A stretch of 64,000 nt of DNA. Source: an uncultured Gemmatimonas sp. GTDB lineage: Bacteria > Gemmatimonadota > Gemmatimonadetes > Gemmatimonadales > Gemmatimonadaceae. Of the stretch, positions 2,415 to 20,406 are shown piece by piece (the stretch's first letter is position 1; each line of letters opens with the position of its first letter). Where the stretch lies: contig CAYQCP010000006.1 of the NCBI GenBank assembly GCA_964416005.1, forward strand, positions 20,082 through 84,081, in the 5' to 3' direction. The notes under the pieces were generated by a model that was not told the origin of the DNA, searched no databases, and saw only the letters and a list, made by a program, of their open reading frames with translations. The translations under genes were made by a program, and so were the position numbers.

Positions 2415-2912
2415 TTACGGCTTGCCCGCGGCCGGAACGCTCTGCTGCATCTTCTCCATCGATTTCAGCATGCGGTCCATGGTACCAAGCATCTCGTGCA
2501 TTGACTTCTGCATCGTACCCAGCTCGGTGTGCATCGTTCCGCCGGCCATCGCGGTCTTATCGCCCATCAGATCGTGCATTTGCGTGGTGAGTCCCTTCAT
2601 CTGCACCGACATGGCCGAGAGATTCTCGGTCATCAGATGCATCGTGTGCGCGCCGGGGGCGCCCATCGGCATGCCCTGCGCGACCTGCGTCAACTGCTGC
2701 GTGCGCTGGACCATCACGTCCGTCCGCTGCATCATCGACTGCATCTGGGCCATCATGGCGGCCGACATGCCCTGCTGCGCCATGCCCTGATGCGACATGC
2801 CCTGGTGCCCGGCCATGCCGCCCATCTGGCCCTGGGCCGCAGCGCGTCCAGCGGTCAACGCGAGCGCGAGGACGCCGACTGTCGTGCACCGTGCCAACAG
2901 GAGTCTTTTCAT
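2415..2912 (-). CDS. Met/His-rich periplasmic protein (probable Cu(I)/Ag(I)-binding type)
   Basis: Internal ATG at 2912 of track ORF 2415..3008 gives MKRLLLARCTTVGVLALALTAGRAAAQ (signal peptide). It is followed by GQMGGMAGHQGMSHQGMAQQGMSAAMMAQMQSMMQ and many further M/H residues. Confidence 0.75.
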   Translation of the reverse strand: MKRLLLARCTTVGVLALALTAGRAAAQGQMGGMAGHQGMSHQGMAQQGMSAAMMAQMQSMMQRTDVMVQRTQQLTQVAQGMPMGAPGAHTMHLMTENLSAMSVQMKGLTTQMHDLMGDKTAMAGGTMHTELGTMQKSMHEMLGTMDRMLKSMEKMQQSVPAAGKP

Positions 2913-3361
2913 CGGGATCCGTCCCTTCGTTCGAGTGATGATCGGGTCACCGCCTGGAGGTGACCGTCGGTGTTTTCGGAAGGTCGTTGCGACGACATCA
3001 CCCACCAAGTCCGCGTTCCCTTGATTTTATGTAGGATAAAACCTGAACGGTTGACGACCGTTTGTCCAGTCGTACCGGGTAAGGAAAGGCAGAGAGGAGT
3101 GCGGCGACAAGCCTAGGAGAGATCGCGATTTGCGACTTGATCGCCGTCGACTCGTCGTGGCAACCGGACCGCCTCGGGCCTTCACCGAGGACGAGGCGCG
3201 TCGCGCGCACCCCGGTGGGGCCGATCGTCTGTGCTCGCCTCGCTCGCCTTTATTCGGTAGATGGGCACGCCCGCACGCGTACGCGCAGCTACTCGCGTGC
3301 TCAGCCGTGGTCAGTCAATCTCCGCCTCCCCGTCTGCCCCAGGCGCTCTTCGCCACACACG

Positions 3362-4384
3362 CTACGTCGTCGAGCGTGGTGCCGTTGCGGCAAAATGCGC
3401 GGCGAGAGAGAGCAAGGACTCAGTCACTCGGATGATGAACTGCGCTTCCGCTCGAGAGTACGTCATCGGCGCACCGAAGTCGTGATGAGCATCAACTGCA
3501 AGCTGTTTCAGTTTGGTGACAATACCGGCGTACTCTCCGCCGCGCCTTCCGCTCGCCGACCGTTCGAACAACGCTTTGAGGGCATCAATGCCCTTTCCGG
3601 CTTCATGCTCATGACCCGCGGCCTCCAGAACCTTGCGGCACTGTCCGACCGCATCATCGTACTCTCCGGCCCGTACCTTCTCTCTGGCCTCGCGGACGAA
3701 CGCGAGCCCACGTTTGAAGTATTCGCGCTCGCCCGGTCCGTACTGAATCTCCAGGACCTCGAACTCACTGCTGCCGGCCGCTCGGAGAAAATCAAGCCAC
3801 GTTTCTCGCGGAACCAGCAACTCAATGTTCGGGACCTGGCAGTGCAGCCGCCCCTCGGCGGCCACGAGCACTGGCCACAGCGTCACAAGGAACCGAGGGG
3901 CAGCTCCGTTTCTGCGGCGTTCAATCTGTTCCAGTCTCCCGGCATCGAGATCGCAGCAGCACGCCACGACAGTTTCAGCGCCGGTACTCGACGATTGGAC
4001 GGCACGTCGATCACCGCACCATGAAAGGGGCCCAACCGCATCCTGTTCTGGACCGAGACGCAATTCCCCATAAAGATCAGTCATCGCGTAATTCTGAAGC
4101 TGCTGGACACCCTGCATAGCGCTCGGTGCGACGTCGCGAAGTCCGACGCTGACCTTCAGAACAAGCCGAGGGTACAGTGCCGGGTCCGCGTGGAGCGCGT
4201 TGACTCTGATCCGTCCGACAATTGTCGAGTTGACCACTACCTCTGCTTCACCGAAGCTTGGCATTCTCAGTCCGAGAGAGCGAGTCAGTTGTGATAGAAC
4301 ACCCAGCTGAAGCTGATCGACGGAGGTCCGCGGCCACGACTTCTGCCATAGCCGGCGCGACGCCCGAGTTGCCGTGGGCGGCAC
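3362..4384 (-). CDS. Hypothetical 340-aa protein; N-terminal ~200 aa unrecognised, C-terminal helices DUF4145-like
   Basis: Long ORF starting 6 nt downstream of the preceding gene. I recognise no catalytic motif. C-terminal helices FVREAREKVRAGEYDDAVGQCRKVLEA and LKQLAVDAHHDFGAPMTYSRAEAQFIIRVTESLL resemble the DUF4145 pattern found in RM/Abi proteins (by memory only). Confidence 0.6.
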   Translation of the reverse strand: MPPTATRASRRLWQKSWPRTSVDQLQLGVLSQLTRSLGLRMPSFGEAEVVVNSTIVGRIRVNALHADPALYPRLVLKVSVGLRDVAPSAMQGVQQLQNYAMTDLYGELRLGPEQDAVGPLSWCGDRRAVQSSSTGAETVVACCCDLDAGRLEQIERRRNGAAPRFLVTLWPVLVAAEGRLHCQVPNIELLVPRETWLDFLRAAGSSEFEVLEIQYGPGEREYFKRGLAFVREAREKVRAGEYDDAVGQCRKVLEAAGHEHEAGKGIDALKALFERSASGRRGGEYAGIVTKLKQLAVDAHHDFGAPMTYSRAEAQFIIRVTESLLSLAAHFAATAPRSTT

Positions 4385-4390
4385 CGCTTC

Positions 4391-5032
4391 TTACCCGGGT
4401 CGCGCGCGCCATCGTCTGATCGCCTCGATGTACTCGATCACCGGCATAAAATTCAACTCCTCATCACTAAAACCGGCGTCCTTCCGTTCATCGTAGAAGG
4501 CAGACGCAAAGTCCGTGAACCGATACCAGAGGACCGTAGGGCTTGGGGCGTCTTTCACCCCTGCGGTCTCTAGAAACCAATCTCGCACCACACGAACGAG
4601 CAGTGTGGGAGAGGACCGGTGATGCTTGATGTCCACGCCCGAGATGTCCGAGAGTGCGCGCCGATAGTCATACGGTTCCGTATCGAGAATGAGTACCCGC
4701 TTCGTCCGGAATCGTGTGCCGCCGAACAGCTGGGCGCCATGATCGACGCCAAGTTCAAATGGAAGATTGAATCGCGCAAACTCCCCAGCCGCCGTTGCGG
4801 TCGGTCGCGAGATGTCATGAATGCTGTTACGTGACGCCCGGATGAGCGCAGCTATCTTATCGAGGCGATTCTCACTACTATCGGAGCGCTCCGTGGCAAT
4901 GCGGGGAGTGAATCCGAGGTCTAGGATCGTGAACAGGAGGGGCCGAAGCAGCGGAACGTACTCGTGATCGAAAGGACAGTTGATGAAAACGTTCCTTTCG
5001 AAGTCTTGCATCCTCGTCGAAACGTGCTTCAC
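4391..5032 (-). CDS. Nucleoside 2-deoxyribosyltransferase/TIR-like (flavodoxin-fold) protein
   Basis: NVFINCPFDHEY (beta1-type start), RLDKIAALIRASRNSIHDIS, and FNLPFELGVDHGA...KRVLILDTE, which resembles the D.G..FE.G catalytic-Glu motif of the NDT/DrHyd/TIR-like superfamily. The ATG overlaps the upstream stop (ATGA at 5029-5032). Confidence 0.6.
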   Translation of the reverse strand: MKHVSTRMQDFERNVFINCPFDHEYVPLLRPLLFTILDLGFTPRIATERSDSSENRLDKIAALIRASRNSIHDISRPTATAAGEFARFNLPFELGVDHGAQLFGGTRFRTKRVLILDTEPYDYRRALSDISGVDIKHHRSSPTLLVRVVRDWFLETAGVKDAPSPTVLWYRFTDFASAFYDERKDAGFSDEELNFMPVIEYIEAIRRWRARPG

Positions 5033-5262
5033 CTCTTGTCGCGAGGCGGCAAGGGATCATGTCCATGCGAGTCCTTGTCGCGAATCGTTCCGTCGCGGCG
5101 ATGGATCACGAGTTCGCTCTTCTCGTTCCTGCTGACTGAGCGAGCCCAGTCGACGGCCTTTCCCTGCGTCGAGAAGTGCTTCGAGGCCCGTTCAGCGCCA
5201 GCCTTCTTGACGTTCCATCCGCCATCAGGCGCCGGAACCACGTGCTGCGACTTCTTCGTCAT
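5029..5262 (-). CDS. DUF2188-family small protein
   Basis: MTKKSQHVVPAPDGGWNVKKAGAERASKHFSTQGKAVDWARSVSRNEKSELVIHRRDGTIRDKDSHGHDPLPPRD matches the DUF2188 pattern (hvvp..dgW.vk..g..ra...f.tq..A...Ar......el.iH..dG.i...dsyg.DP.pp.D). Confidence 0.75.
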   Translation of the reverse strand: MTKKSQHVVPAPDGGWNVKKAGAERASKHFSTQGKAVDWARSVSRNEKSELVIHRRDGTIRDKDSHGHDPLPPRDKR

Positions 5263-5608
5263 GATACGATACCGGAGGAATGGAGGCGAGTTCGTTCGCG
5301 CGTTTCGCTAGGCAGGGGAAAGATAGCCGATTCTCGTTCCGCAGTCTAACGGTGCGACAGGACATGACTAGAGACAGAACGGCACGTTTGCAGCCGCCCG
5401 GTTCGAGCAGGCGCGGACGATGAAGCGCTCGGAGTTCGCTGTAGCGGAGACGGCAAAGAAGAAGCGCACCGAGACTAGCGAAACGCCGCCACGCGACCGA
5501 CACGTGGTGGCGTTCGACATCGCGCAGCGCCTCACTGATCGTCCCTCGCCGTCCGTCGAAGCCGACGGCGACCCCGGCGATGTGAAGAGGCGGGCGCGGT
5601 TTGGTCAT
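5225..5608 (-). CDS. Hypothetical protein (weak call)
   Basis: The ATG shares one nucleotide with the stop of the XRE-ImmA gene (TGATG at 5606-5610). The first ~70 codons look high in third-position GC; the tail overlaps the DUF2188 gene by 38 nt. No motif recognised. Confidence 0.25.
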   Translation of the reverse strand: MTKPRPPLHIAGVAVGFDGRRGTISEALRDVERHHVSVAWRRFASLGALLLCRLRYSELRALHRPRLLEPGGCKRAVLSLVMSCRTVRLRNENRLSFPCLAKRANELASIPPVSYHDEEVAARGSGA

Positions 5609-6687
5609 CAGGGGACTAGCTGGAGGTTCGGCGGTGGCGTCGGAGGGCGAACGGAGGAAGTCGCGCCTCCATGGATCGGTGTCAGGGCCAGGCCGAATGT
5701 CATCTCATCGAAGTCCTGCATCCTGATCCCTAGATCACGCGCCATTTCCTTCCGCGAGGCGCCATTGGCCAGCACCTTTGCCAATACCTGAGAATGCTCG
5801 CGCGGCCGTTCAGGGCCCGGTTCAGCCCGCGGAAACTTCGACTTGATCTCAATGCACAGATTCCGGTACTGCCAGTCAGTCATGTGACGCAGAGTGTACA
5901 GTCGGTGCGCGTAGGCGAGCGCGGAGACGCCCCACTCTTGTTTGGCCTCAATAATCGCACCGAGCGAGATACGCGCCGGCCGCGATGCGAGGAATGGAAC
6001 GGCTGGCATCAGGAGACTGCCCGCAAAGGTCTGTGCTTCGCGTTCTTCTGCTGAGCCATTGGTGTGCGCGTGCATCGTGAGATGGCAGAGCTCGTGACAG
6101 GCGTCCATCCGCCCGCGCTCCGTCGACTTCACCGTGTTGAGGAATACGAAGGGCACGGCCCCTTGCCAGACCGAGAACGCGTCGATCTCGTCTCCCAGGT
6201 GAACCAAGGAGTAGACCCGCACGCCGTTTCGTTCGAGAAGGTGCACGATATTGGGAAGCGGCTTGTTGCCCAGTGCCCAGACTGCCCGCAGTTTCTCCGC
6301 TGCTTCCTCCGGCGTGCAGTCTCGAAGGTCGGGGACGTTGGGCTCGGGCCGCGTAAACCGCTGGCTAATCCACCGATCGAGCGCGACCGCTTGCGCCCCG
6401 GCGGCCCGCGCCAAGTTCTGGTCCCGCCGGGTGAGGCGTGCGAGCGCCCGGAACTTCTCTGCCGCAAGGCGTTCGGGGGCGTCGCCGAAGAAGTAGTTCG
6501 GCGGAAAGTCGAGCAGTGCCGAGAGCGCAAGCACGTTCTTCTCCTCCGGCGCCTTCTCGCTCCGCTCCCAGCGACCGACCGTCTTGACGCTCACACCGAC
6601 GCGCGCGGCGAGCTCCTGGGCAAAGAGGCCACGCCGCTGACGCGCGAGCACCAAACGTTCGCCCGAGAACAGGCCACGGTCAGCCAT
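5608..6687 (-). CDS. XRE-family HTH fused to ImmA/IrrE (COG2856) zinc metallopeptidase
   Basis: N-terminus: GERLVLARQRRGLFAQELAARVGVSVKTVGRWERSE (HTH_XRE). Centre: MDACHELCHLTMH (HExxH) followed by EREAQTFAGSLLMP. Start chosen at MADRGLF (6687); the track start is 6732. Confidence 0.85.
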   Translation of the reverse strand: MADRGLFSGERLVLARQRRGLFAQELAARVGVSVKTVGRWERSEKAPEEKNVLALSALLDFPPNYFFGDAPERLAAEKFRALARLTRRDQNLARAAGAQAVALDRWISQRFTRPEPNVPDLRDCTPEEAAEKLRAVWALGNKPLPNIVHLLERNGVRVYSLVHLGDEIDAFSVWQGAVPFVFLNTVKSTERGRMDACHELCHLTMHAHTNGSAEEREAQTFAGSLLMPAVPFLASRPARISLGAIIEAKQEWGVSALAYAHRLYTLRHMTDWQYRNLCIEIKSKFPRAEPGPERPREHSQVLAKVLANGASRKEMARDLGIRMQDFDEMTFGLALTPIHGGATSSVRPPTPPPNLQLVP

Positions 6688-7372
6688 GGGCCCTGGGGTG
6701 CACCGGAACGTCAACGTCTGGGGCTCCGCCATCGTCGCGACGCCCGTCCGGCGTTGGCGGGTCCAGAAGGTTGATCTCTGGAAGCACGAGGCGAACGCGC
6801 CAGCCGATCAAGGCTCCATCCTCAGACACGCTGTCTGCCAACGACAGTTCAGTGCGCACGAGGTCTCGGTCACGATGAAAGAGGAAGTACCAGAGCGGTC
6901 CGGCAACGGCTGCTTCCTCATGGTCGCCGCGCAACACCGCGAACTCGGGACTGAGCACGAGTTGGTTGCGCCGAATCTCCGCGACGCCGGCACGGCCTCG
7001 ACGGCGCTTCGTCTGGGCATGGACGGGTGAGTTTCGCACGCCGGTGTTCAGGTCCCCCGATGCGGCGACGATGACCACCTCGCCATCCTCACGGACGATG
7101 TGGGCGATGTTCTTCGAGTCGTTCGCGGTCCAGCGCAGGGCGATGAGACGACCTCGAAGTTCGCCCGCGACTTCGGCCGTTGCACGCAACGCGGGATACC
7201 ACACCGGATGCGCAGCCGTGCAGAAATCACGCGCGGCGGCTCCGGCTCGCGCGGAGTCCTGGAGCACTTCGAGGGGCACGCCGAGGTGCGGCAGCCAGGT
7301 GGAAAGGACCTGATCCTCGGTCGGCACGTCCGTCGTGCCGTCGTCGGACTCGTAGCCAGCTGGAAAATGCAT
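6680..7372 (-). CDS. Hypothetical 230-aa protein upstream of XRE-ImmA
   Basis: Internal ATG (MHFPAGYESDDG...) of track ORF 6680..7615. Overlaps the ImmA gene start by 8 nt. No recognised motif. Confidence 0.55.
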   Translation of the reverse strand: MHFPAGYESDDGTTDVPTEDQVLSTWLPHLGVPLEVLQDSARAGAAARDFCTAAHPVWYPALRATAEVAGELRGRLIALRWTANDSKNIAHIVREDGEVVIVAASGDLNTGVRNSPVHAQTKRRRGRAGVAEIRRNQLVLSPEFAVLRGDHEEAAVAGPLWYFLFHRDRDLVRTELSLADSVSEDGALIGWRVRLVLPEINLLDPPTPDGRRDDGGAPDVDVPVHPRAHG

Positions 7373-7421
7373 GTCTACCCCTGCAGAATGAGCGTTCGAG
7401 ACAACATCGGGTCCTCCAAAT

Positions 7422-7637
7422 CTATAAAACTGGAGGACCCTTTGCAAGTCTCGCTTCGGATTCCGTTTGGGGCACCCTCCGCGGTCTGTCCCAGTAGGGG
7501 GACTTGCATTTCGGGCAGACGAGCGGGGCCGCGTTCTTCTCTCGTGGTCGCCATTCGTGGCTACACCGCTCGCACCGCAAACCCTCGAGCCATGCTTTGG
7601 GCATGGGTGAAACATATACCCATAGATCAGTCTTCAC
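7422..7637 (-). CDS. Small zinc-ribbon protein (CxxC...CxxC)
   Basis: LRCERCSHEWRPREKNAAPLVCPKCKSPYWDRP. Two CxxC pairs, typical of small MGE-borne zinc ribbons. First gene after an AT-rich promoter region. Confidence 0.6.
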   Translation of the reverse strand: MKTDLWVYVSPMPKAWLEGLRCERCSHEWRPREKNAAPLVCPKCKSPYWDRPRRVPQTESEARLAKGPPVL

Positions 7638-7639
7638 AA

Positions 7640-7867
7640 GTATCTTGTTTATTAACTTAGATTATATAGTATACGCGTTGAAGGTATAGTATCTGGCTCT
7701 CTGCAAGAGTGCGGAATCACCCCATATCCGTTACAGAGTAGGGCGGTCGCTCATGTGTCTACGACTTCCCTTTATGTTGCTTTGTGGCGGTTTGTCTTGT
7801 ATGTTACCTAAAGGGAATGAAACAGCAAACAAGGCCAGAACTGACGTAAAGGGACATAGGAAAGCCA
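7640..7867. promoter_or_regulatory. AT-rich divergent promoter/operator region (zinc-ribbon operon vs hipBA)
   Basis: Local GC drop. TATAGTAT occurs twice 20 bp apart (7665-7672 and 7685-7692), and GTATAC is a palindrome. It lies between divergently oriented genes. Confidence 0.4.
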
Positions 7868-8122
7868 ATGCGCCGACTTGAAACCATCGATAGCCCGGAG
7901 GCCTTTGGGGAGGCGTTGCGCCAGCGGCGGAAGGCGCGGCACCTGACGCAGACGCGCGCGGCCGCGCTATGCGGCGTCTCACCCCGACTCTGGAACCAGA
8001 CCGAGACCGGGAAGCGGCCGCAGCTTGGCTTCGCCACGGCGCTGCGCATGTGCCAGGTGCTCGGCCTCGACCTGCAGTTGATGCCGCGGAGCGACCCGAC
8101 CGGACGGGGGCCCAACACGTGA
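7868..8122 (+). CDS. hipB: HipB-like XRE antitoxin
   Basis: FGEALRQRRKARHLTQTRAAALCGVSPRLWNQTETGKR (HTH_XRE). The stop overlaps the hipA ATG (TGATG). Confidence 0.85.
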   Translation: MRRLETIDSPEAFGEALRQRRKARHLTQTRAAALCGVSPRLWNQTETGKRPQLGFATALRMCQVLGLDLQLMPRSDPTGRGPNT

Positions 8123-9707: not shown

Positions 9708-11636
9708 TCACACGCGCGCGCGCCTGGTCGCTGGAGCCGGGCCCCCCTCCGAGCTGCGCGTCCCTGGTGGCTCCGGAATCGGATACTCCCCCCGCATCCA
9801 CGATCTCACCACCGACACATCGACCGAGGAGAAGACCTCCGGCGGACAGTAGATCAGCTGGTGTGTGGCGCGACCGTGCCGCGAAAGTCGAGGCGCTCGG
9901 CACGGGATGATCAGCAGCCGGCGATCGGTGGCGGATCGCTGCATCAGTGGACCCCGCAACGTTGGGGTCTGCTTCCGGAAGTGCTCCACCAAGTCTCGCG
10001 CCGAGTGGAAGTGAGGAATCCACGTTGCGGGGAATCCCGCGGCAAGCACGGCATTGGCGAACGCGCGATCCTGTGCCTCCTGCCGTGACGACTGTGTAAC
10101 GGGCACACCCGCCCGTTCCATCTCCTGCGCGACCGTGGGCCAGTTGAGATAGCGGCGCCCGACAAGATCGTAAGCTACGATGGGTGTCCGCTGTCGAATC
10201 AACCGTTCAATCACGCGCGTTTGCGACGTGCTGAGTACCGGCTGCTGCTCGGCCGCCCGGGTATCCTCATACGCCCATCCCGCACGTCGCGCCGTCTGCT
10301 GTCGCGCATAGTCCGGGAACGCCTTCTCGAGACACGCCTCGTCCGGCGCCACGACCAGCGCACCGTCCGCGTCGACTCGGGCCGGTCCGAGGACACCCTG
10401 CATCACCCGGTGCCACAGGTCCCGCTCGTCAGCGCCCGTGCGATGAGCCAACACACTGATCGTTTCGCCTTGACCGCTGACGATCGCTGGCACCTCTTCG
10501 AAGTACCTGTGCAAGAGGGCCACCGAGTCGACCTCATCCGGCGTGAACTCGCGGGAACCGATGATCTTGAGTCGGCCCGCCGCCAACTCTCGGGCGATTG
10601 CCTTCCGTTCGCGACCACGTTGCCGCTGCGTGTACGCCCACAAGCGTTGCGGCTGCGTGGTCCAGACGGGTCCCGTGAGGATCAGCAGTTCCGTCGTAAC
10701 GCCGTGCGGGAACGTGATCTCCGCCAAGGCCAATTTCGGCGCGATGCGCCGGAGCGCGATCGTGGTCGTCAACAAGCGGACGAGTCGGCGCGTGGCACCA
10801 GGCACCGGGGCGGCGAGGACGAAGAGCTGCTCCACACGACCGGCCAAGGAACGTAGAGCGTTGAGCACGCGTCGCCGCAACACGGGATCGCCTGTCGACA
10901 GCTGCGCCTCACGCGCCTCCACGAGTGCCGCACGAAGGGCTTCGCGTTCGCTGAGATCATGTTCCATCGTCAGGAGAAGCGCCTCCCGCAGCCTGTCGCG
11001 CGTTTCGAGATTCGCGTGCACCATCAGTCGAATACGTTGCTCCACGTCGGCGAGTTTGTCCTGCAGTCCCGCCAGCTGGCGGATCTTCTCACGTTCGAGA
11101 CCCTCGACCAGGTGTCCGAGTTCTTCGAGGGGCACCGCGCGATAGGCCGTGGCGATGGCCGACAGGATCGGTCCTTCGACAACGGGAGCGAACCGCGCCG
11201 CATGCGGCTCCAGACTCTCAATGCAATGTGTGGACCGATACTCATACGTCGTTCCGGCACGGCGTCGCGCGCGCACCGTGATCCCGCAACGATGGTGCGA
11301 CGCGTCCAGCCAGCCACACCGCATGGCCGGCAGTTTCGGATCCAATGGCGCTCTCGCGCGACGCGCGCCGCGGCGCGTCCCCTGGCTCAGCAGACGCCGC
11401 ATGAGTTCGTATGACGAGGAAGGCGCAAATGACGGAAAGGCGTCCATCTTCCACACGAGCGCGCGCGGATCCGCCACGCCGTGCCGGTGCGGATCGCGAT
11501 CGCGACGACCCAATGGTGTCAGAACGTCAACGGACGTGCCCACGACGCCGCCGTCCCCAGCGCCCGTCTCAGGTTCCTCGTCCATCTTCGGATCGCCGAG
11601 ATCCTCCTCGCGCCCGTCAACTCGCACGATGCGCAT
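9708..11636 (-). CDS. Large serine recombinase, C-terminal portion (zinc-ribbon + coiled-coil + long tail) as a separate ORF
   Basis: MRCGWLDASHHRCGITVRARRRAGTTYEYRSTHC (recombinase zinc-beta-ribbon), then the coiled coil LEELGHLVEGLEREKIRQLAGLQDKLADVEQRIRLM. The ATG shares one nucleotide with the upstream TAA (TAATG at 11634-11638). Confidence 0.75.
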   Translation of the reverse strand: MRIVRVDGREEDLGDPKMDEEPETGAGDGGVVGTSVDVLTPLGRRDRDPHRHGVADPRALVWKMDAFPSFAPSSSYELMRRLLSQGTRRGARRARAPLDPKLPAMRCGWLDASHHRCGITVRARRRAGTTYEYRSTHCIESLEPHAARFAPVVEGPILSAIATAYRAVPLEELGHLVEGLEREKIRQLAGLQDKLADVEQRIRLMVHANLETRDRLREALLLTMEHDLSEREALRAALVEAREAQLSTGDPVLRRRVLNALRSLAGRVEQLFVLAAPVPGATRRLVRLLTTTIALRRIAPKLALAEITFPHGVTTELLILTGPVWTTQPQRLWAYTQRQRGRERKAIARELAAGRLKIIGSREFTPDEVDSVALLHRYFEEVPAIVSGQGETISVLAHRTGADERDLWHRVMQGVLGPARVDADGALVVAPDEACLEKAFPDYARQQTARRAGWAYEDTRAAEQQPVLSTSQTRVIERLIRQRTPIVAYDLVGRRYLNWPTVAQEMERAGVPVTQSSRQEAQDRAFANAVLAAGFPATWIPHFHSARDLVEHFRKQTPTLRGPLMQRSATDRRLLIIPCRAPRLSRHGRATHQLIYCPPEVFSSVDVSVVRSWMRGEYPIPEPPGTRSSEGGPAPATRRARV

Positions 11637-12769
11637 TACATCATCTCCCCAGCAAGCAGATCATCGACTCCCGGCAGAGCGGGCCTTCCCTGCTCCAGCG
11701 CGCGGTTGAGGTGCGCGCCCTTGTGCTGCTCGGCGCGATCGGCGCGTAGAGTCTCGTGCACCAGGCCTTCCGCATAGAAGGCGTAGATGCCGTACAGGGC
11801 GGGCAGCATGAACCAGCGACGAAGGGCCTGCCGGTTGACCTTCCGCCACTGCATCCGCTGACCTGGACGCCAGCGCGCTCCCGTTGTGCATGGCACAAGT
11901 CCTCTCCGTGCCTTCGGCCACCCCAGCTCGCCCGCTCGAATGCGCGCGACGACCGCTTGGACATCCTGAAGCTCCAGGAGCCACTTCATCCGCAACTCAA
12001 CGGTCGCACTCACCTCAGCGTCCGGAAACGGCAAGATCCGCAGGGTTCGCGCGTCGAGCACGCTGCCTTCGCGATGCCGGGACAAGTCCCGTACCCAGTC
12101 GCGGAGTCCGTGCTTCTCCAATGCATGGAGATACTCGCGATTATGAGGATCGGCCCAGACCAGTCCCGACGGAAGCGGAATGCGGGCAGCCAAATTCCGG
12201 GCGAGGCTGCGCCGGGACTTCATGCGCCACGACACGGCCACCCGCAGTTCCCGCCGGGCCTCCGCACTACCAGTCGTCAGTTCGTACTCATGATCGGGAT
12301 TGGCCGGATCCAACAGCCGAGTGCCCATCATGAAGATGACGCCGTGACGCTTGGCCAGGCGAAGGAGCTCTTCCATGTCGCCAACGTGCCGAGAGAGGCG
12401 ATGCGTGGCCGACGTCACGATCAGTCCGACCTTGTTGGCCTGGATCTGCTGTAGCAGATAGGTGAAGAGTCGACGTCCGGCGCTGGCGGAGGCTTGCTCG
12501 CCCAACGCTTCGAGCAGCGTCACCACTTCGTGAGAGACACCGAGCTCCAACACTTGGCCGACGCACTGCGATCGTTGCATCTCCGGACTACCCTTCGACT
12601 CGCGAGCTTGCGTCAGGCTGCTCTGGCGGATGACCACGAACGCGCCGCGCTCTGCCGCCGCCCTCAAGCGCACGCGATCATCCACGACCGTGGGCTGCGC
12701 CCAGTTCATCGATGCACGAGCGGCCTGGAACGGATTGACAGACTGCGACAGGTAGGGATCGAACGTCAT
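11636..12769 (-). CDS. Large serine recombinase, N-terminal portion (resolvase catalytic + recombinase domain)
   Basis: AFVVIRQSSLTQARESKGSPEMQRSQC (catalytic Ser region), GLIVTSATHRLSRHVGDMEELLRLAKRHGVIF (DRLSR-like), and RRELRVAVSWRMKSRRSLARNL. Confidence 0.85.
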   Translation of the reverse strand: MTFDPYLSQSVNPFQAARASMNWAQPTVVDDRVRLRAAAERGAFVVIRQSSLTQARESKGSPEMQRSQCVGQVLELGVSHEVVTLLEALGEQASASAGRRLFTYLLQQIQANKVGLIVTSATHRLSRHVGDMEELLRLAKRHGVIFMMGTRLLDPANPDHEYELTTGSAEARRELRVAVSWRMKSRRSLARNLAARIPLPSGLVWADPHNREYLHALEKHGLRDWVRDLSRHREGSVLDARTLRILPFPDAEVSATVELRMKWLLELQDVQAVVARIRAGELGWPKARRGLVPCTTGARWRPGQRMQWRKVNRQALRRWFMLPALYGIYAFYAEGLVHETLRADRAEQHKGAHLNRALEQGRPALPGVDDLLAGEMM

Positions 12770-17453: not shown

Positions 17454-18200
17454 CTAGATGACCGCGAGTTCACGCGGGTATTCGTCCCACGTGCGGCCAT
17501 CGAGTTCACGGCCACCGGCCTTCGGGGTAAAACCGCCCCATTGCTTCCAGAAGAAGCGGATCCTCCGTCGGCGACACAGCGCGCGCAACCCACGCGCCCA
17601 TCGGATGTCGACCGGGCGATACCCTGGTCCGCTCTCCCCGCCGCCGATGATCCAGTCGATCCCGCTGACGTCGAGGTCATCGAGCGGTCCGAGCAGCGGC
17701 TCCGCGGAGATGAACCGCACCGCGGCAGGGATCGCGCGCAACGCGTTGGCGCGGTGCGCCACGTCCATGTTCTCAATCGACGTCCCCATCCAGATATTCG
17801 GGCTCCAGTTCAGCCTGTCGGCAAGGCGCACCGCGCGCTCCGGTCGCTTCGTCAGGAGTTGGAACTGATGCTGGCCACACTCGTTCATCACCGCGAAGAC
17901 CCGCTGGATGTGCTCCAGGGAGAAGTGCGCGTGAAAGACGTCGCTCATCGAGTTGACGAAGACGCGACGAGGCTCCCTCCACTTCCGCGGCAATTCGATG
18001 CGATCGATCCAGAAGCGTGGAGCGAACGGATCGTCGCGATTCGCGGAGGACTCCCGCACGGGCGGCTGCTGTAGGTAGATCTGCCGTGTGCGTCGATAGG
18101 CCACGACCTGAGCGTAACAGTGATCGCAACCGGCGGAGATCTTCGTACACCCCGTCATCGGGTTCCACGTTTCGTCGGTCCACTCGATCTTGGTCGGCAT
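17454..18200 (-). CDS. DUF5131 / phage Gp37-Gp68 family protein
   Basis: MPTKIEWTDETWNPMTGCTKISAGCDHCYA (family-typical start and C-x6-C-x2-C), FVNSMSDVFH, FISAEPLLGP, and IIGGGESGPGYRP. Conservative start at 18200; an in-frame upstream extension exists (see findings). Confidence 0.85.
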   Translation of the reverse strand: MPTKIEWTDETWNPMTGCTKISAGCDHCYAQVVAYRRTRQIYLQQPPVRESSANRDDPFAPRFWIDRIELPRKWREPRRVFVNSMSDVFHAHFSLEHIQRVFAVMNECGQHQFQLLTKRPERAVRLADRLNWSPNIWMGTSIENMDVAHRANALRAIPAAVRFISAEPLLGPLDDLDVSGIDWIIGGGESGPGYRPVDIRWARGLRALCRRRRIRFFWKQWGGFTPKAGGRELDGRTWDEYPRELAVI

Positions 18201-18559
18201 CGAGCGCTCCGGCTCCGGGTGATAGTGCCAAGAATGGCAGCACGGTTCGACCGCCGCAACCGCAACGCGGAGCAGAGTTCGGAGGTCGACGAGGGGAGGA
18301 CACAGGTGTATCGACTGCTGGGCCATATCGAGCGACCCATCGGGACGGATGGCGCCGACGAGCGGCTGCAGCGCGCAGCGCGAGACCGACACGCGCTCGC
18401 AGCGTGTGCCCGTCCGCAGACGCACGTCGTCGACGACCTGGAACAGGTCCCGAATGCCCCGGCCTACGAGACAACGCGGGTTCCCTGCGGGATGCCGGTC
18501 CGTCGCTCGCAAAGCCACCACGACTCTGGATGTGTGCTGTACCACCGCGACCGCCAGCG

Positions 18560-19963
18560 CTAACCCCAGAGTGACCGATTCACCTGCTGCATGCTGGCGC
18601 TGCTGCAGAATACGCAATTTGCGTCTGTCATTCGTCGCCGACGGCGAGACGCGAGAGGCGGCCGCCAGGCGCTGACGCTCCAGTAGTTGTCGCTTAATGG
18701 AGGACCACTCGTCAGTCGCCGGGCCAACTCCAGGGCGAGCAATGTGCCGGCGAGCGCACTGATGAAGGCGAAGGGCGCCAAGACGCGTTCGTCCGCCGTC
18801 GCCGCCAGCGCTCCCGATGCGCACAGCTGCTTGAACAGCGTGTCGTAGGCCGTTCCCTCGATATCGGTGCTGACAAGGTGCGGGTGACGTTTCGCAATCC
18901 GAGCGGCGGCCCGCGGACTGATTCGTGATTCGCGAACATCCGTCACAGTGACATCGAGATGGTCCGCGATATGTTGTTCAAGCGAATACTCCGCTTCGTC
19001 GGCGCGGTAGATACACGCCAAGCAGGCGGCCGTCGTCGGTTGGCGGTGATGGTGGATGACGACCTCGTGAATGCCGGTGGTCGAGGCATCGAACACCTCG
19101 CCTGGACACTCATTCTGCAGCTCGCGTCGCGCGCGACGACTATCAACCGCCACGATGAGACGAGGTAACCATGCGCCATGCGTCTTCATTGGAAGGTTCT
19201 GGAGCCGCGCCCTGTAGCCCCGAAGCGTCAATTGCGCGAAGTCCGCGCGCGCCTTCTCGGCGAGACACAGAGCCTTCGCTTGGCCGATATCGGGCGGATT
19301 GAAGTAGAGCTGTCGATTCAGATTACCTGACGCCACGACATCGTCGTCCGCGATGACCAACTCTCCGGACACCGGGAGATGCCGAAGCGCCCAGAGAAAT
19401 CCGTTTCCGATGGCGCCCGCGCCTGCCAGATACGCGGTCCCCACATCAAACGGGGTGGCAAGTTGCGCGTCGTCGAGCCCTACCACGGCGAACGACAGAC
19501 GAAACGGCAGGCGCAGCGGCACCGGACCCGATTGCGGCACGGTTTCGGGCAGAAGCGCGCGGAAGGCGGCCGCCGCGATGTAACACGCCGCGAGCGCGAC
19601 GTAGGGTCGCGACACGGGAACGTCGAGAGCCGCGGGGAGCTTCGCGCCGTCGATCGTGAGGCCCGCACGATCGAGGACCGCGAATCGGCGTGGTGCCGTG
19701 CTCCTCGGTGTGGTCGCTCCCACAACGACCTCAAGATCCGGCACGAAGCCCTCAGACGTCATGCTGACCTGGGTCACGGAACGAGCCAACAACTCGATCA
19801 CGTCCTGCGCGAGGGCGACGGCGGTCGCATCGCTCGCGGGAGCGGTGACCAGCACATTGCGGTCCAGCGTGCGCTCGGCCTCATCGACGCTGAGTCCGGC
19901 AGCGCGGGCGAGCGTGCGGGCATTCTCTGATCGGGCCTCCTGCGTCAGGAGAGATCCAGGCAT
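18560..19963 (-). CDS. E1-like ThiF/MoeB-family adenylating enzyme (BilD-like)
   Basis: YLAGAGAIGNGFLWAL (Rossmann GxGxxG), NLNRQ, DSRRAR, and the CxxC pairs CLACIY and CVFCSS. About 190 aa of N-terminal extra domain. Start at MPGSLLT (19963). Confidence 0.85.
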   Translation of the reverse strand: MPGSLLTQEARSENARTLARAAGLSVDEAERTLDRNVLVTAPASDATAVALAQDVIELLARSVTQVSMTSEGFVPDLEVVVGATTPRSTAPRRFAVLDRAGLTIDGAKLPAALDVPVSRPYVALAACYIAAAAFRALLPETVPQSGPVPLRLPFRLSFAVVGLDDAQLATPFDVGTAYLAGAGAIGNGFLWALRHLPVSGELVIADDDVVASGNLNRQLYFNPPDIGQAKALCLAEKARADFAQLTLRGYRARLQNLPMKTHGAWLPRLIVAVDSRRARRELQNECPGEVFDASTTGIHEVVIHHHRQPTTAACLACIYRADEAEYSLEQHIADHLDVTVTDVRESRISPRAAARIAKRHPHLVSTDIEGTAYDTLFKQLCASGALAATADERVLAPFAFISALAGTLLALELARRLTSGPPLSDNYWSVSAWRPPLASRRRRRMTDANCVFCSSASMQQVNRSLWG

Positions 19964-20406
19964 GTGTCCACCTCCCGTGCGGGCACCGCACACCACACAT
20001 TGCGGGCGTTCAGGCGGAAGACCTTCACGTCGTCCGCGAAGGTCCGGTCATCCGTGTTGACCGCGAACTGGGGCAGGACCAGCGAGAGCGCCCCTTCATG
20101 GCGAATGATGGCCCATGTATCATCCGCGACTGAATGGAACGCGTCGCGCGGATGCGTGTGCACCTGGGCTGCCACCATCAATCGTTCACGTCGAAGGTGC
20201 GCCGTGAGCTCGCGCATGCTCGCTGGCGGAATCCGGAAGAGATCCGCGCGCGCTTCCTGCATTGGCCGATAGCATTCGGTGACCACGATGGAGTCTCCCG
20301 CTCGTCGACCAAGCCAAAGCACCACGCACTCCACGCGCGTGCGTCCCGTCTCCTGAAGTACTGCGAGCGTTATCGCGCGCAGCGACGCGTTCACCCGGAC
20401 TCGCAT
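19945..20406 (-). CDS. JAB/MPN (JAMM) metalloprotease (BilC-like)
   Basis: ECVVLWLGRR (conserved Glu) and QVHTHPRDAFHSVADD (HxH...S..D). The ATG at 20406 shares one nucleotide with the E2 stop. Confidence 0.85.
   Translation of the reverse strand: MRVRVNASLRAITLAVLQETGRTRVECVVLWLGRRAGDSIVVTECYRPMQEARADLFRIPPASMRELTAHLRRERLMVAAQVHTHPRDAFHSVADDTWAIIRHEGALSLVLPQFAVNTDDRTFADDVKVFRLNARNVWCAVPAREVDTCLDLS

Follow-up and report, generated by a model that had tools for sequence, protein, structure and literature searches.

A conserved gene pair encoding a DUF2188 protein and a predicted TIR/NDT-like protein, beside an independent HEPN-type gene, in an uncultured Gemmatimonas

Introduction

In the immunity of bacteria, plants and animals, TIR/NDT-fold enzymes (NDT, nucleoside 2-deoxyribosyltransferase) hold a central place as effectors and as generators of signals. 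The catalytic glutamate of TIR NADases is placed in the helix that follows the third strand of the fold, and the same site holds the glutamate nucleophile of DNPH1, within its GYELG motif. Here we analyse three adjacent genes, named A, B and C, from an uncultured Gemmatimonas sp. They lie in a 64,000-nt stretch of contig CAYQCP010000006.1, referred to as the window; coordinates are positions within it, and the three open reading frames (ORFs) are all on its minus strand. A encodes a small DUF2188 protein, B an unannotated protein with a predicted TIR/NDT-like domain, and C a protein with a predicted HEPN-like domain.

Several described systems come close to parts of this locus. The NDT fold has a precedent as a defence effector in ThsI, the ‘CMP hydrolase’ effector of type VIII Thoeris, but ThsI is equipped with a TPR sensor and acts alongside a ThsB TIR protein, and the present locus has neither. 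Links of DUF2188 to conflict systems and to antitoxins have both been described. According to a 2026 analysis, the family, including the RPA3313 structure 5JN6, has the three-strand-plus-helix core of the HicB N-terminal domain (HicB-N), which is the toxin-neutralising part of HicB antitoxins, and a stand-alone DUF2188 protein was proposed as a possible ‘minimal antitoxin module’ (PMC13621843). Lau et al. described DUF2188 operons governed by CapH/CapP-type regulators and an operon in which DUF2188 accompanies nucleotide cyclases and a cNMP-binding TIR protein; for the prediction that the domain acts in defence, they refer to Burroughs & Aravind 2020 (bioRxiv 10.1101/2022.04.27.489752). Operons of a canonical TIR and DUF2188 were put forward in a 2025 preprint as a putative, untested Thoeris type (bioRxiv 10.64898/2025.12.03.692087).

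TIR/NDT-fold effectors and toxin-antitoxin (TA)-like cassettes are already known as kinds, and A is known as a PADLOC candidate. The B family, its strict coupling to DUF2188 and its alternative partner are undescribed in the libraries and literature searched. A first-pass annotation of the window, made from the sequence without database searches, had read the three genes as one defence-type module in which a 340-aa third protein acted as sensor or regulator of an NDT/TIR-like enzyme. In the present study we report that A and B, and not all three genes, make up the functional unit as a two-gene cassette, that the gene of a small partner protein nearly always precedes B, and that C is an independent single-gene element. 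We also weigh what the cassette may do.

Results and Discussion

Genes A and B form a two-gene unit

Gene A (5029-5262, minus strand) encodes a 77-aa DUF2188 protein, the small upstream partner of gene B (4391-5032, minus strand), whose 213-aa product is unannotated and combines an N-terminal TIR/NDT-like domain with a C-terminal helical domain. The stop codon of A and the start codon of B share four nucleotides (5029-5032), and the pair measures ∼870 bp. The 4-nt overlap had been reported as ATGA; its length holds, and its sequence on the coding strand is GTGA, B beginning with GTG.

Homologs of B were sought in one genome per species across 185,579 species genomes, which yielded at least 562 confirmed loci, and the linkage counts below refer to the best 80 of these. 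The 80 loci are spread over Desulfobacterales, Latescibacterota, Acidobacteriota, Thermotogaceae, Gemmatimonadales and Caldithrix, over Cyanobacteria, Armatimonadia, Anaerolineae, Atribacterota and Verrucomicrobiota, over Alpha-, Beta- and Gammaproteobacteria, and over Bacteroidota, Chlorobaculum, Spirochaetota, Leucobacter and Lachnospiraceae. A DUF2188 ORF adjoins B on the same strand in every one of them (80/80) and lies directly upstream in 79, mostly with spacers of −4 to +15 nt. The sole exception is a Gemmatimonadales metagenome-assembled genome (L013 1383-2325; L numbers are our designations of loci), where the order is reversed and the DUF2188 gene is found ∼38 nt downstream of B. At one more locus no upstream gene had been called, and a DUF2188 ORF there overlaps the start of B. 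When 531 neighbour ORFs were compared all-against-all by BLAST, no other recurrent neighbour of A-B emerged. Pairwise identities among the A proteins and among the B proteins form correlated matrices (r = 0.43, Mantel p = 0.001), as expected of a co-inherited unit.

The B family comprises 4834 homolog clusters at 90% identity, none of which has a precomputed Pfam domain. Its distribution is sporadic, covering a few hundred species of unrelated phyla with differing flanks, which fits horizontal transfer and not a core function. B was found on 17 plasmids, and no homologs were found on phages. Adjacency, co-orientation, near-overlap, paired conservation and variable flanks, the traits by which the gene organisation of type II TA systems is recognised, are all present in A-B.

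C homologs are absent from all 80 B loci. The proposed three-gene module and the role of the third protein as sensor or regulator of B both fall with this result, since B and C are not conserved neighbours and the partner of B is the DUF2188 gene. Co-occurrence across genomes, suggested earlier as a check on the gene pair, fails for B-C and is found for A-B.

Fold and conserved residues of protein B

An AlphaFold model of B, built from a 32-sequence alignment (pLDDT 75.8, pTM 0.79), predicts an N-terminal domain of five beta-alpha units (residues ∼14-140, strands 14-18, 42-45, 69-73, 112-117 and 133-137), followed by a helical C-terminal domain of ∼70 aa (∼142-210) that is confident in the model and conserved. 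Foldseek searches of the PDB with this model returned TIR domains, namely SPARTA TIR-APAZ (8spo/8qlp), IL-1RAcPb (7fcc), SARM1 (7djt/8d0g) and RRS1 (4c6s), as well as NDT and DNPH1 structures (2a0k, 6qai, 8rh3, 4p5e and 4kxm, including T. brucei and Leishmania NDT). For 8spo, 8qlp, 7fcc, 7djt and 4c6s, the probability was 0.94-1.0, with E 6e-3 to 4e-2 and target-normalised TM ≤0.56; over both groups together, E ranged from 6e-3 to 0.1, the probability was mostly 0.85-1.0 and the target-normalised TM ≤0.58. In the viral library BFVD, the matches were TIR proteins, many NDTs and one Cap12/Pycsar TIR protein (best E 5.7e-4). A TIR/NDT-like, flavodoxin-type fold of B is thus supported by the predicted structure, and to this extent the fold assignment of the first-pass annotation stands; on the side of sequence profiles, it found no significant Pfam or hhalign match.

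The motifs quoted earlier for this protein, VFINCPFD, IHDIS, FNLPFELG and KRVLILD, were all recovered. Across 77 B sequences, 16 residues are invariant: F16, N18, C19, P20, D22, F34, R56, H72, D73, R87, N89, E93, S128, D129, D134 and H138. Glu93 belongs to the PFELG motif and opens the helix 92-102 after the third strand (69-73), a stretch of low model confidence to which we return below, and it corresponds to the glutamate of FE.G, which had been pointed out as an acidic nucleophile signature. When compared by eye, which is not a statistical comparison, the B motif PFELG...K111-x-x-L-x-L resembles GYELG...NKRILCLF of DNPH1, and short local hhalign alignments of B fall at topologically equivalent elements.

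B shares with the Cap12/Pycsar TIR proteins (PF10137) and with SPARTA TIR-APAZ the five-stranded, flavodoxin-like beta-alpha fold, these being among the best Foldseek matches. In the model, which is weak at this stretch, the invariant Glu93 would take the position of the catalytic glutamate of TIR NADase effectors in general. PF10137 was also the most frequent Pfam match in the family, with 9 of 77 members, all below threshold (best E 0.012); the next family was matched by 3 of 77. Unlike TIR NADase effectors, B stays below every curated threshold, lacks SAVED, STING, APAZ and cNMP sensor domains, carries a helical domain at its C-terminus and is obligatorily paired with a small protein encoded upstream. 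The fold and the E-L-G motif followed by a lysine and a hydrophobic strand are likewise shared with NDT and DNPH1, but B has NCPFD after the first strand where those enzymes have GSIRGG or AGP motifs, and PF05014 was not matched by any member in sets of 32 or 77 B sequences. With sequence-profile links that are non-significant, B is not assigned to any of the named TIR or NDT families.

Gene A and the DUF2188 family

The identification of the first ORF as DUF2188 was borne out by Pfam (1.2e-25, residues 6-66 of 77). A also matches PHROG 3220 (3.3e-28) and, end to end, the PADLOC candidate PDC-S16 (PDLC04942/PDLC04941, ∼1.6e-36, 1-74 of 75 positions). The earlier statement that the locus matches no named system consequently applies to B and not to A. 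PDC-S16 is, however, an unvalidated single-gene candidate that does not include B.

Proteins 55-59% identical to A were found on 492 plasmids and 26 phages. A tie between DUF2188 and antitoxins is seen in the Mycobacterium phage prophiT48-1 (L108 2638-3231), where DUF2188 forms the C-terminal part of a 197-aa annotated antitoxin, whose gene is directly downstream of a BrnT-like toxin gene. As an orphan, a DUF2188 gene ∼55% identical to A is very common on Klebsiella plasmids, among them the K. pneumoniae plasmid pAZJ065-Hv (L106) and 341 others; in L106, which lacks a B homolog, an Xre/RES NAD+-phosphorylase TA pair follows this gene ∼700 nt downstream.

Divergent homologs of B have another upstream partner

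On alphaproteobacterial plasmids, tblastn revealed divergent B homologs (31-41% identical) that have a small gene of a non-DUF2188 type directly upstream. This alternative small partner was located at L094 6802-6972, L110 2184-2480, L111 2088-2474, L112 2096-2488 and L113 2200-2490. None of the copies has a Pfam match above threshold, one showing a weak match to DUF7574 (E 0.025), and three have in common the motif DGV(I/V)V-x4-6-KP(T/R)(H/A)F(T/S). The change of upstream protein looks like partner swapping, which is typical of toxin-antitoxin systems.

Gene C is an independent HEPN-type neighbour

The third ORF extends over 3362-4384 (minus strand) when taken at its maximum of 340 aa, and is co-directional with the other two, as had been described. 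Its start is nevertheless to be placed at the ATG at 4264. The methionine of the conserved MPSFGE motif begins 35 of 35 homologs from a word-based search, with the consensus Met-Pro/Ser-Ser-Phe/Leu-Gly-Glu, and in three close relatives the gene has been called with a product of 303 aa beginning ∼120 nt past B. When the B-C junction was aligned at the DNA level with that of two relatives, the sequences proved nearly identical from this ATG onward and of low identity 5' of it, where indels of 5 nt and 2 nt imply that the stretch before the ATG cannot be coding. Together these data make gene C (3362-4264, minus strand) 300 aa long and separate it from B by a non-coding spacer of 126 nt (4265-4390, minus strand). 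By this sequence comparison, the 6-nt gap reported earlier between B and C is an artefact of ORF extension. The spacer contains a weak terminator-like hairpin at 4316-4303.

The AlphaFold model of C (pLDDT 87) consists of a beta-sandwich (∼1-165) and a helical bundle (∼177-294). For the N-terminal domain, Foldseek matched AF_0446 (3but), LEA14/WHy (1yyc) and the TMEM106B luminal domain, with 8b7d among the matches. The helical bundle matched the HEPN structures 1ufb, 2hsb, 1wol and 4nqf (probability 1.0, target-normalised TM 0.52-0.66). Below the Pfam threshold, HEPN was matched by 12 of 36 family members (best 0.0022) and DUF4145 by 7 of 36 (best 3.8e-4), and DUF4145 is given as a recognised HEPN family in a 2013 survey (PMC3710099). 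The DUF4145-like helical tail noticed in the first-pass annotation was therefore recovered. The CCC triplet noticed there is present too, with the last cysteine alone invariant among homologs. Arg210 and Arg271 are also invariant, as is His261, which belongs to a motif [K/R]-x7-H where the residue eight positions upstream is mostly lysine, in place of the canonical HEPN R-x4-6-H.

C resembles the HEPN/DUF4145 proteins of abortive infection (Abi) and restriction-modification contexts in the fold of its bundle, in the weak Pfam matches and in its stand-alone, variable and often conflict-related contexts. It differs from them in having no match above threshold and in its usually lysine-containing [K/R]-x7-H motif, and its beta-sandwich (LEA14/WHy-like, AF_0446-like) is not among the HEPN fusion partners in the available part of the 2013 survey (PMC3710099).

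The word-based search, with 35 homologs, understated the C family, which counts 1988 representatives in an exhaustive HMMER search at E ≤ 1e-3. At E ≤ 1e-30 there are 135 representatives, and nearly all full-length members are ∼295 aa long and match end to end. Neither A nor B is present at nine C loci with at least 1.5 kb of upstream sequence (L001, L003, L092, L093, L097 and L099-L102). One C homolog follows a transposase and precedes a NucS_C gene, another is placed between Ro60/TROVE and RtcB in an RNA-repair-type cluster (L003 3666-8200), a third ∼900 nt past a TIR gene (L092 3947-6984), and a fourth after an rve transposase and an SduA_C (Shedu) fragment (L093 1132-2379); five further metagenome loci are also without A or B. 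The Ro60/RtcB, TIR and Shedu contexts hint at an RNA-related or conflict role. Because C occurs elsewhere without A or B and belongs to a stand-alone family of ∼295-aa proteins, it is an independent single-gene element, and from its predicted structure it is most simply read as a stand-alone HEPN-type gene, probably RNA-targeting, that was inserted beside A-B. As a separately mobile element encoding a putative HEPN-like RNase, C would have landed beside the cassette only in this Gemmatimonadaceae lineage. For annotation, C should be kept apart from A-B, as a member of a sizeable family of its own in which a beta-sandwich is combined with a HEPN-like domain.

Possible function of the A-B cassette

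Gene order, coupling, distribution, fold and the literature lead us to favour, tentatively and with chances that we put at a little under even, a TA-like or abortive cassette in which B is an N-glycosidase held in check by A. The substrate of B would most likely be NAD+ or a nucleotide, an N-glycosidic bond of which would be cleaved by means of the invariant Glu93. A, translated just ahead of B from one transcript, would, as a HicB-N-like protein, most likely bind B and keep it inactive or gated; infection, stress or a similar trigger would then remove or titrate A and so free B. The pair would then act like a type II TA or abortive-infection pair and move horizontally as a self-contained unit, with divergent B proteins using the other small upstream partner. 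It has in common with HicAB, and with systems of NAD+-targeting toxins such as RES-Xre/MbcTA, a small upstream gene translationally coupled to a larger enzyme gene, and an autonomous, horizontally spread organisation with variable flanks, plasmid copies and partner swap; with HicAB it also shares the HicB-N-like description of DUF2188. It differs from these systems in that A lacks the DNA-binding domain of HicB and B is unrelated to HicA or RES. A further proposal, that B represents an unrecognised clade of TIR-like NAD+ or nucleotide glycosidases controlled directly by a bare DUF2188 protein or by a second small protein family, seems possible to us, if still doubtful.

A number of observations weigh against this picture, and a defence role of A-B is unproven. 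The mean pairwise identity of B across phyla, ∼47%, is unusually high for a toxin or defence gene, typical TA toxins being less conserved. Of the ORFs that flank A-B in the 80 genomes, 150 were sampled at random; their Pfam families were mostly housekeeping (class I/II tRNA synthetases, PGI, catalase, NDK, ribulose-phosphate epimerase, GCV_T, MFS and ABC transporters), and strong PADLOC matches were few, consisting of GajA-type ATPases, DNA methyltransferases, one ThsB and one capP; enrichment of A-B in defence islands was not borne out by this sample. A matches DUF2188 only, with no match to HTH, RHH or AbrB, which makes it unlike typical type II antitoxins. The A-like genes inspected on plasmids and prophages have no B nearby and are common without it, so A is not a dedicated partner of B; the dependence is asymmetric, B being nearly always accompanied by a small upstream protein and DUF2188 having no need of B. 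For the B protein of the window, there is no match in Pfam, NCBIfam, PADLOC or PHROG, and a single-sequence search of the PDB returned nothing; the one PDB match of the B profile, to an OTU domain (E 0.03), was dismissed as spurious. Comparisons by hhalign with canonical TIRs, DUF1863-type TIRs and DNPH1 were non-significant with both the 32- and the 77-sequence alignments, whose low diversity (Neff 2-3.5) limits the weight of these negatives. The pLDDT of the model falls below 50 at residues 81-98, around Glu93, and leaves the geometry of the glutamate unproven.

Some of these observations would also suit a role outside conflict, in which B is a DNPH1/NDT-like hydrolase for the sanitation of damaged or modified nucleotides or for base salvage, A is an accessory or regulatory subunit, and the island in the window is incidental. 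The overwhelmingly housekeeping flanks elsewhere, with few defence-like matches, and the strong conservation of B across phyla would then find an explanation; the Foldseek matches to DNPH1 and NDT are as good as those to TIR, and the ELG...K-x-x-L-x-L motif and a later serine align topologically with DNPH1, if non-significantly. We consider such a role unlikely nonetheless, given the sporadic distribution that fits horizontal transfer, the presence of B on plasmids, the ties of DUF2188 to conflict systems and antitoxins, the swapped upstream partner of divergent B homologs, and an hhalign probability below 1% against DNPH1. Less probable again is a minimal Thoeris-like pathway, with B making an NAD+-derived signal on infection and A sensing it or acting as the effector. 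The composition of a TIR-fold protein and a DUF2188 protein is that of the putative Thoeris type (bioRxiv 10.64898/2025.12.03.692087), DUF2188 also occurs in the operon with cyclases and a cNMP-binding TIR protein mentioned above, and B combines a TIR-like fold with an invariant glutamate. The TIR_2-like TIRs of that putative type cannot be aligned with B, however; B is unrelated in sequence to the ThsB-type TIRs of the survey and has no PADLOC match to ThsB, and A, with 77 aa of DUF2188 alone, has no recognisable killing domain, so the ThsB-type TIR and the effector with a killing or sensor domain by which Thoeris is defined are both missing from A-B. A-like proteins are moreover abundant without a TIR neighbour, and divergent B homologs pair with a non-DUF2188 protein. 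The single defence operon A-B-C, with the 340-aa protein as sensor or regulator of the enzyme, we regard as highly improbable. The three genes are adjacent and co-directional in the window, but elsewhere this adjacency is confined to close Gemmatimonadaceae relatives (B 83-86% identical). A further, more remote case has B at 75% and C at 69% identity, the longest contig given for each being 1941 nt. HEPN and NDT/TIR domains do both serve as effectors in Abi-type proteins (PMC3710099). Against this stand the lack of C homologs at the 80 B loci, the other company kept by C (transposases, NucS_C, Ro60/RtcB, a TIR gene and a Shedu fragment), its large family of stand-alone proteins, and the indel-bearing spacer that divides B from C.

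If A-B is indeed a TA-like or abortive cassette, a large and strongly conserved branch of the TIR/NDT fold has gone unannotated, and an enzyme of the B type would owe its regulation to a separate, tiny protein and not to a fused sensor domain. The cassette would constitute a new and very widespread two-gene TA or abortive-infection family, and DUF2188, common on plasmids and prophages and a defence candidate, would gain its first concrete molecular role, that of an enzyme gatekeeper. A-B is an easy experimental target, being small and self-contained with one obvious putative catalytic residue, Glu93.

Upstream region and genomic surroundings in the window

The region upstream of A (5263-5607, minus strand) is the presumed promoter site of A-B and forms part of the ORF 5225-5608 (minus strand), which runs from the stop codon of the next gene, RmrA, into the start of A. 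No match to the sigma-70 consensus was found in this region, a scan for promoters and terminators gave signals no better than shuffled sequence, and Rfam had no match within 2800-8000. In relatives, a 70-aa gene without Pfam match has been called at the counterpart of this ORF (L090 6988-7200 and L091 1587-1799). A 12-nt inverted repeat (5482-5493 and 5503-5514) is located inside the ORF.

Directly upstream of A and on the same strand is the TA system RosmerTA, which is absent from the first-pass annotation. The RmrA-like gene (5608-6732, minus strand) encodes an XRE HTH fused to an M78 peptidase, a CapH/CapP-like arrangement (PADLOC RmrA 3.7e-115; Pfam Peptidase_M78 and HTH_3). It also matches the PADLOC capP model (4.6e-12), which recalls the published DUF2188 operons under CapH/CapP regulators. 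The RmrT-like gene, the Rosmer toxin (6680-7372, minus strand), encodes ∼230 aa in an ORF that reaches 7615; its PADLOC match (2e-38) covers residues 106-308 of the 311-aa ORF, and 230 aa are called in relatives. An HTH-M78 regulator was considered as a general component of the cassette and ruled out, as homologs of RmrA or RmrT were not found near A-B in the 80 other loci; 1 of the 150 sampled neighbours in other genomes matched the capP model.

The A-B-C stretch has a low GC content, 58-62% as against 66-71% on both sides, in the window and its relatives. The same stretch carries RosmerTA, HipBA, which had rightly been noted nearby, and a serine-recombinase pair (9708-12769, minus strand). 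The pair consists of a Resolvase-domain serine recombinase (377 aa) and an adjoining 642-aa protein without Pfam match, and both genes hold the same position in the relatives L087 and L090. The recombinase genes and the GC dip at ∼3-8 kb suggest that the HipBA-Rosmer-A-B-C block is a mobile island. The surroundings had been described as a defence island, and in this window they are rich in TA and defence genes; in other genomes the flanks of A-B are mainly housekeeping. A Bil operon had likewise been placed nearby. At 17454-19996 (minus strand) we find a DUF5131 gene that matches the PADLOC candidates PDC-M41B and PDC-M30B (4.5e-91) and, adjoining it, an E1-like gene with E1-N and ThiF domains (18560-19996), whose match to BilD is weak (9.3e-10). 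These two genes are probably what had been named the Bil operon.

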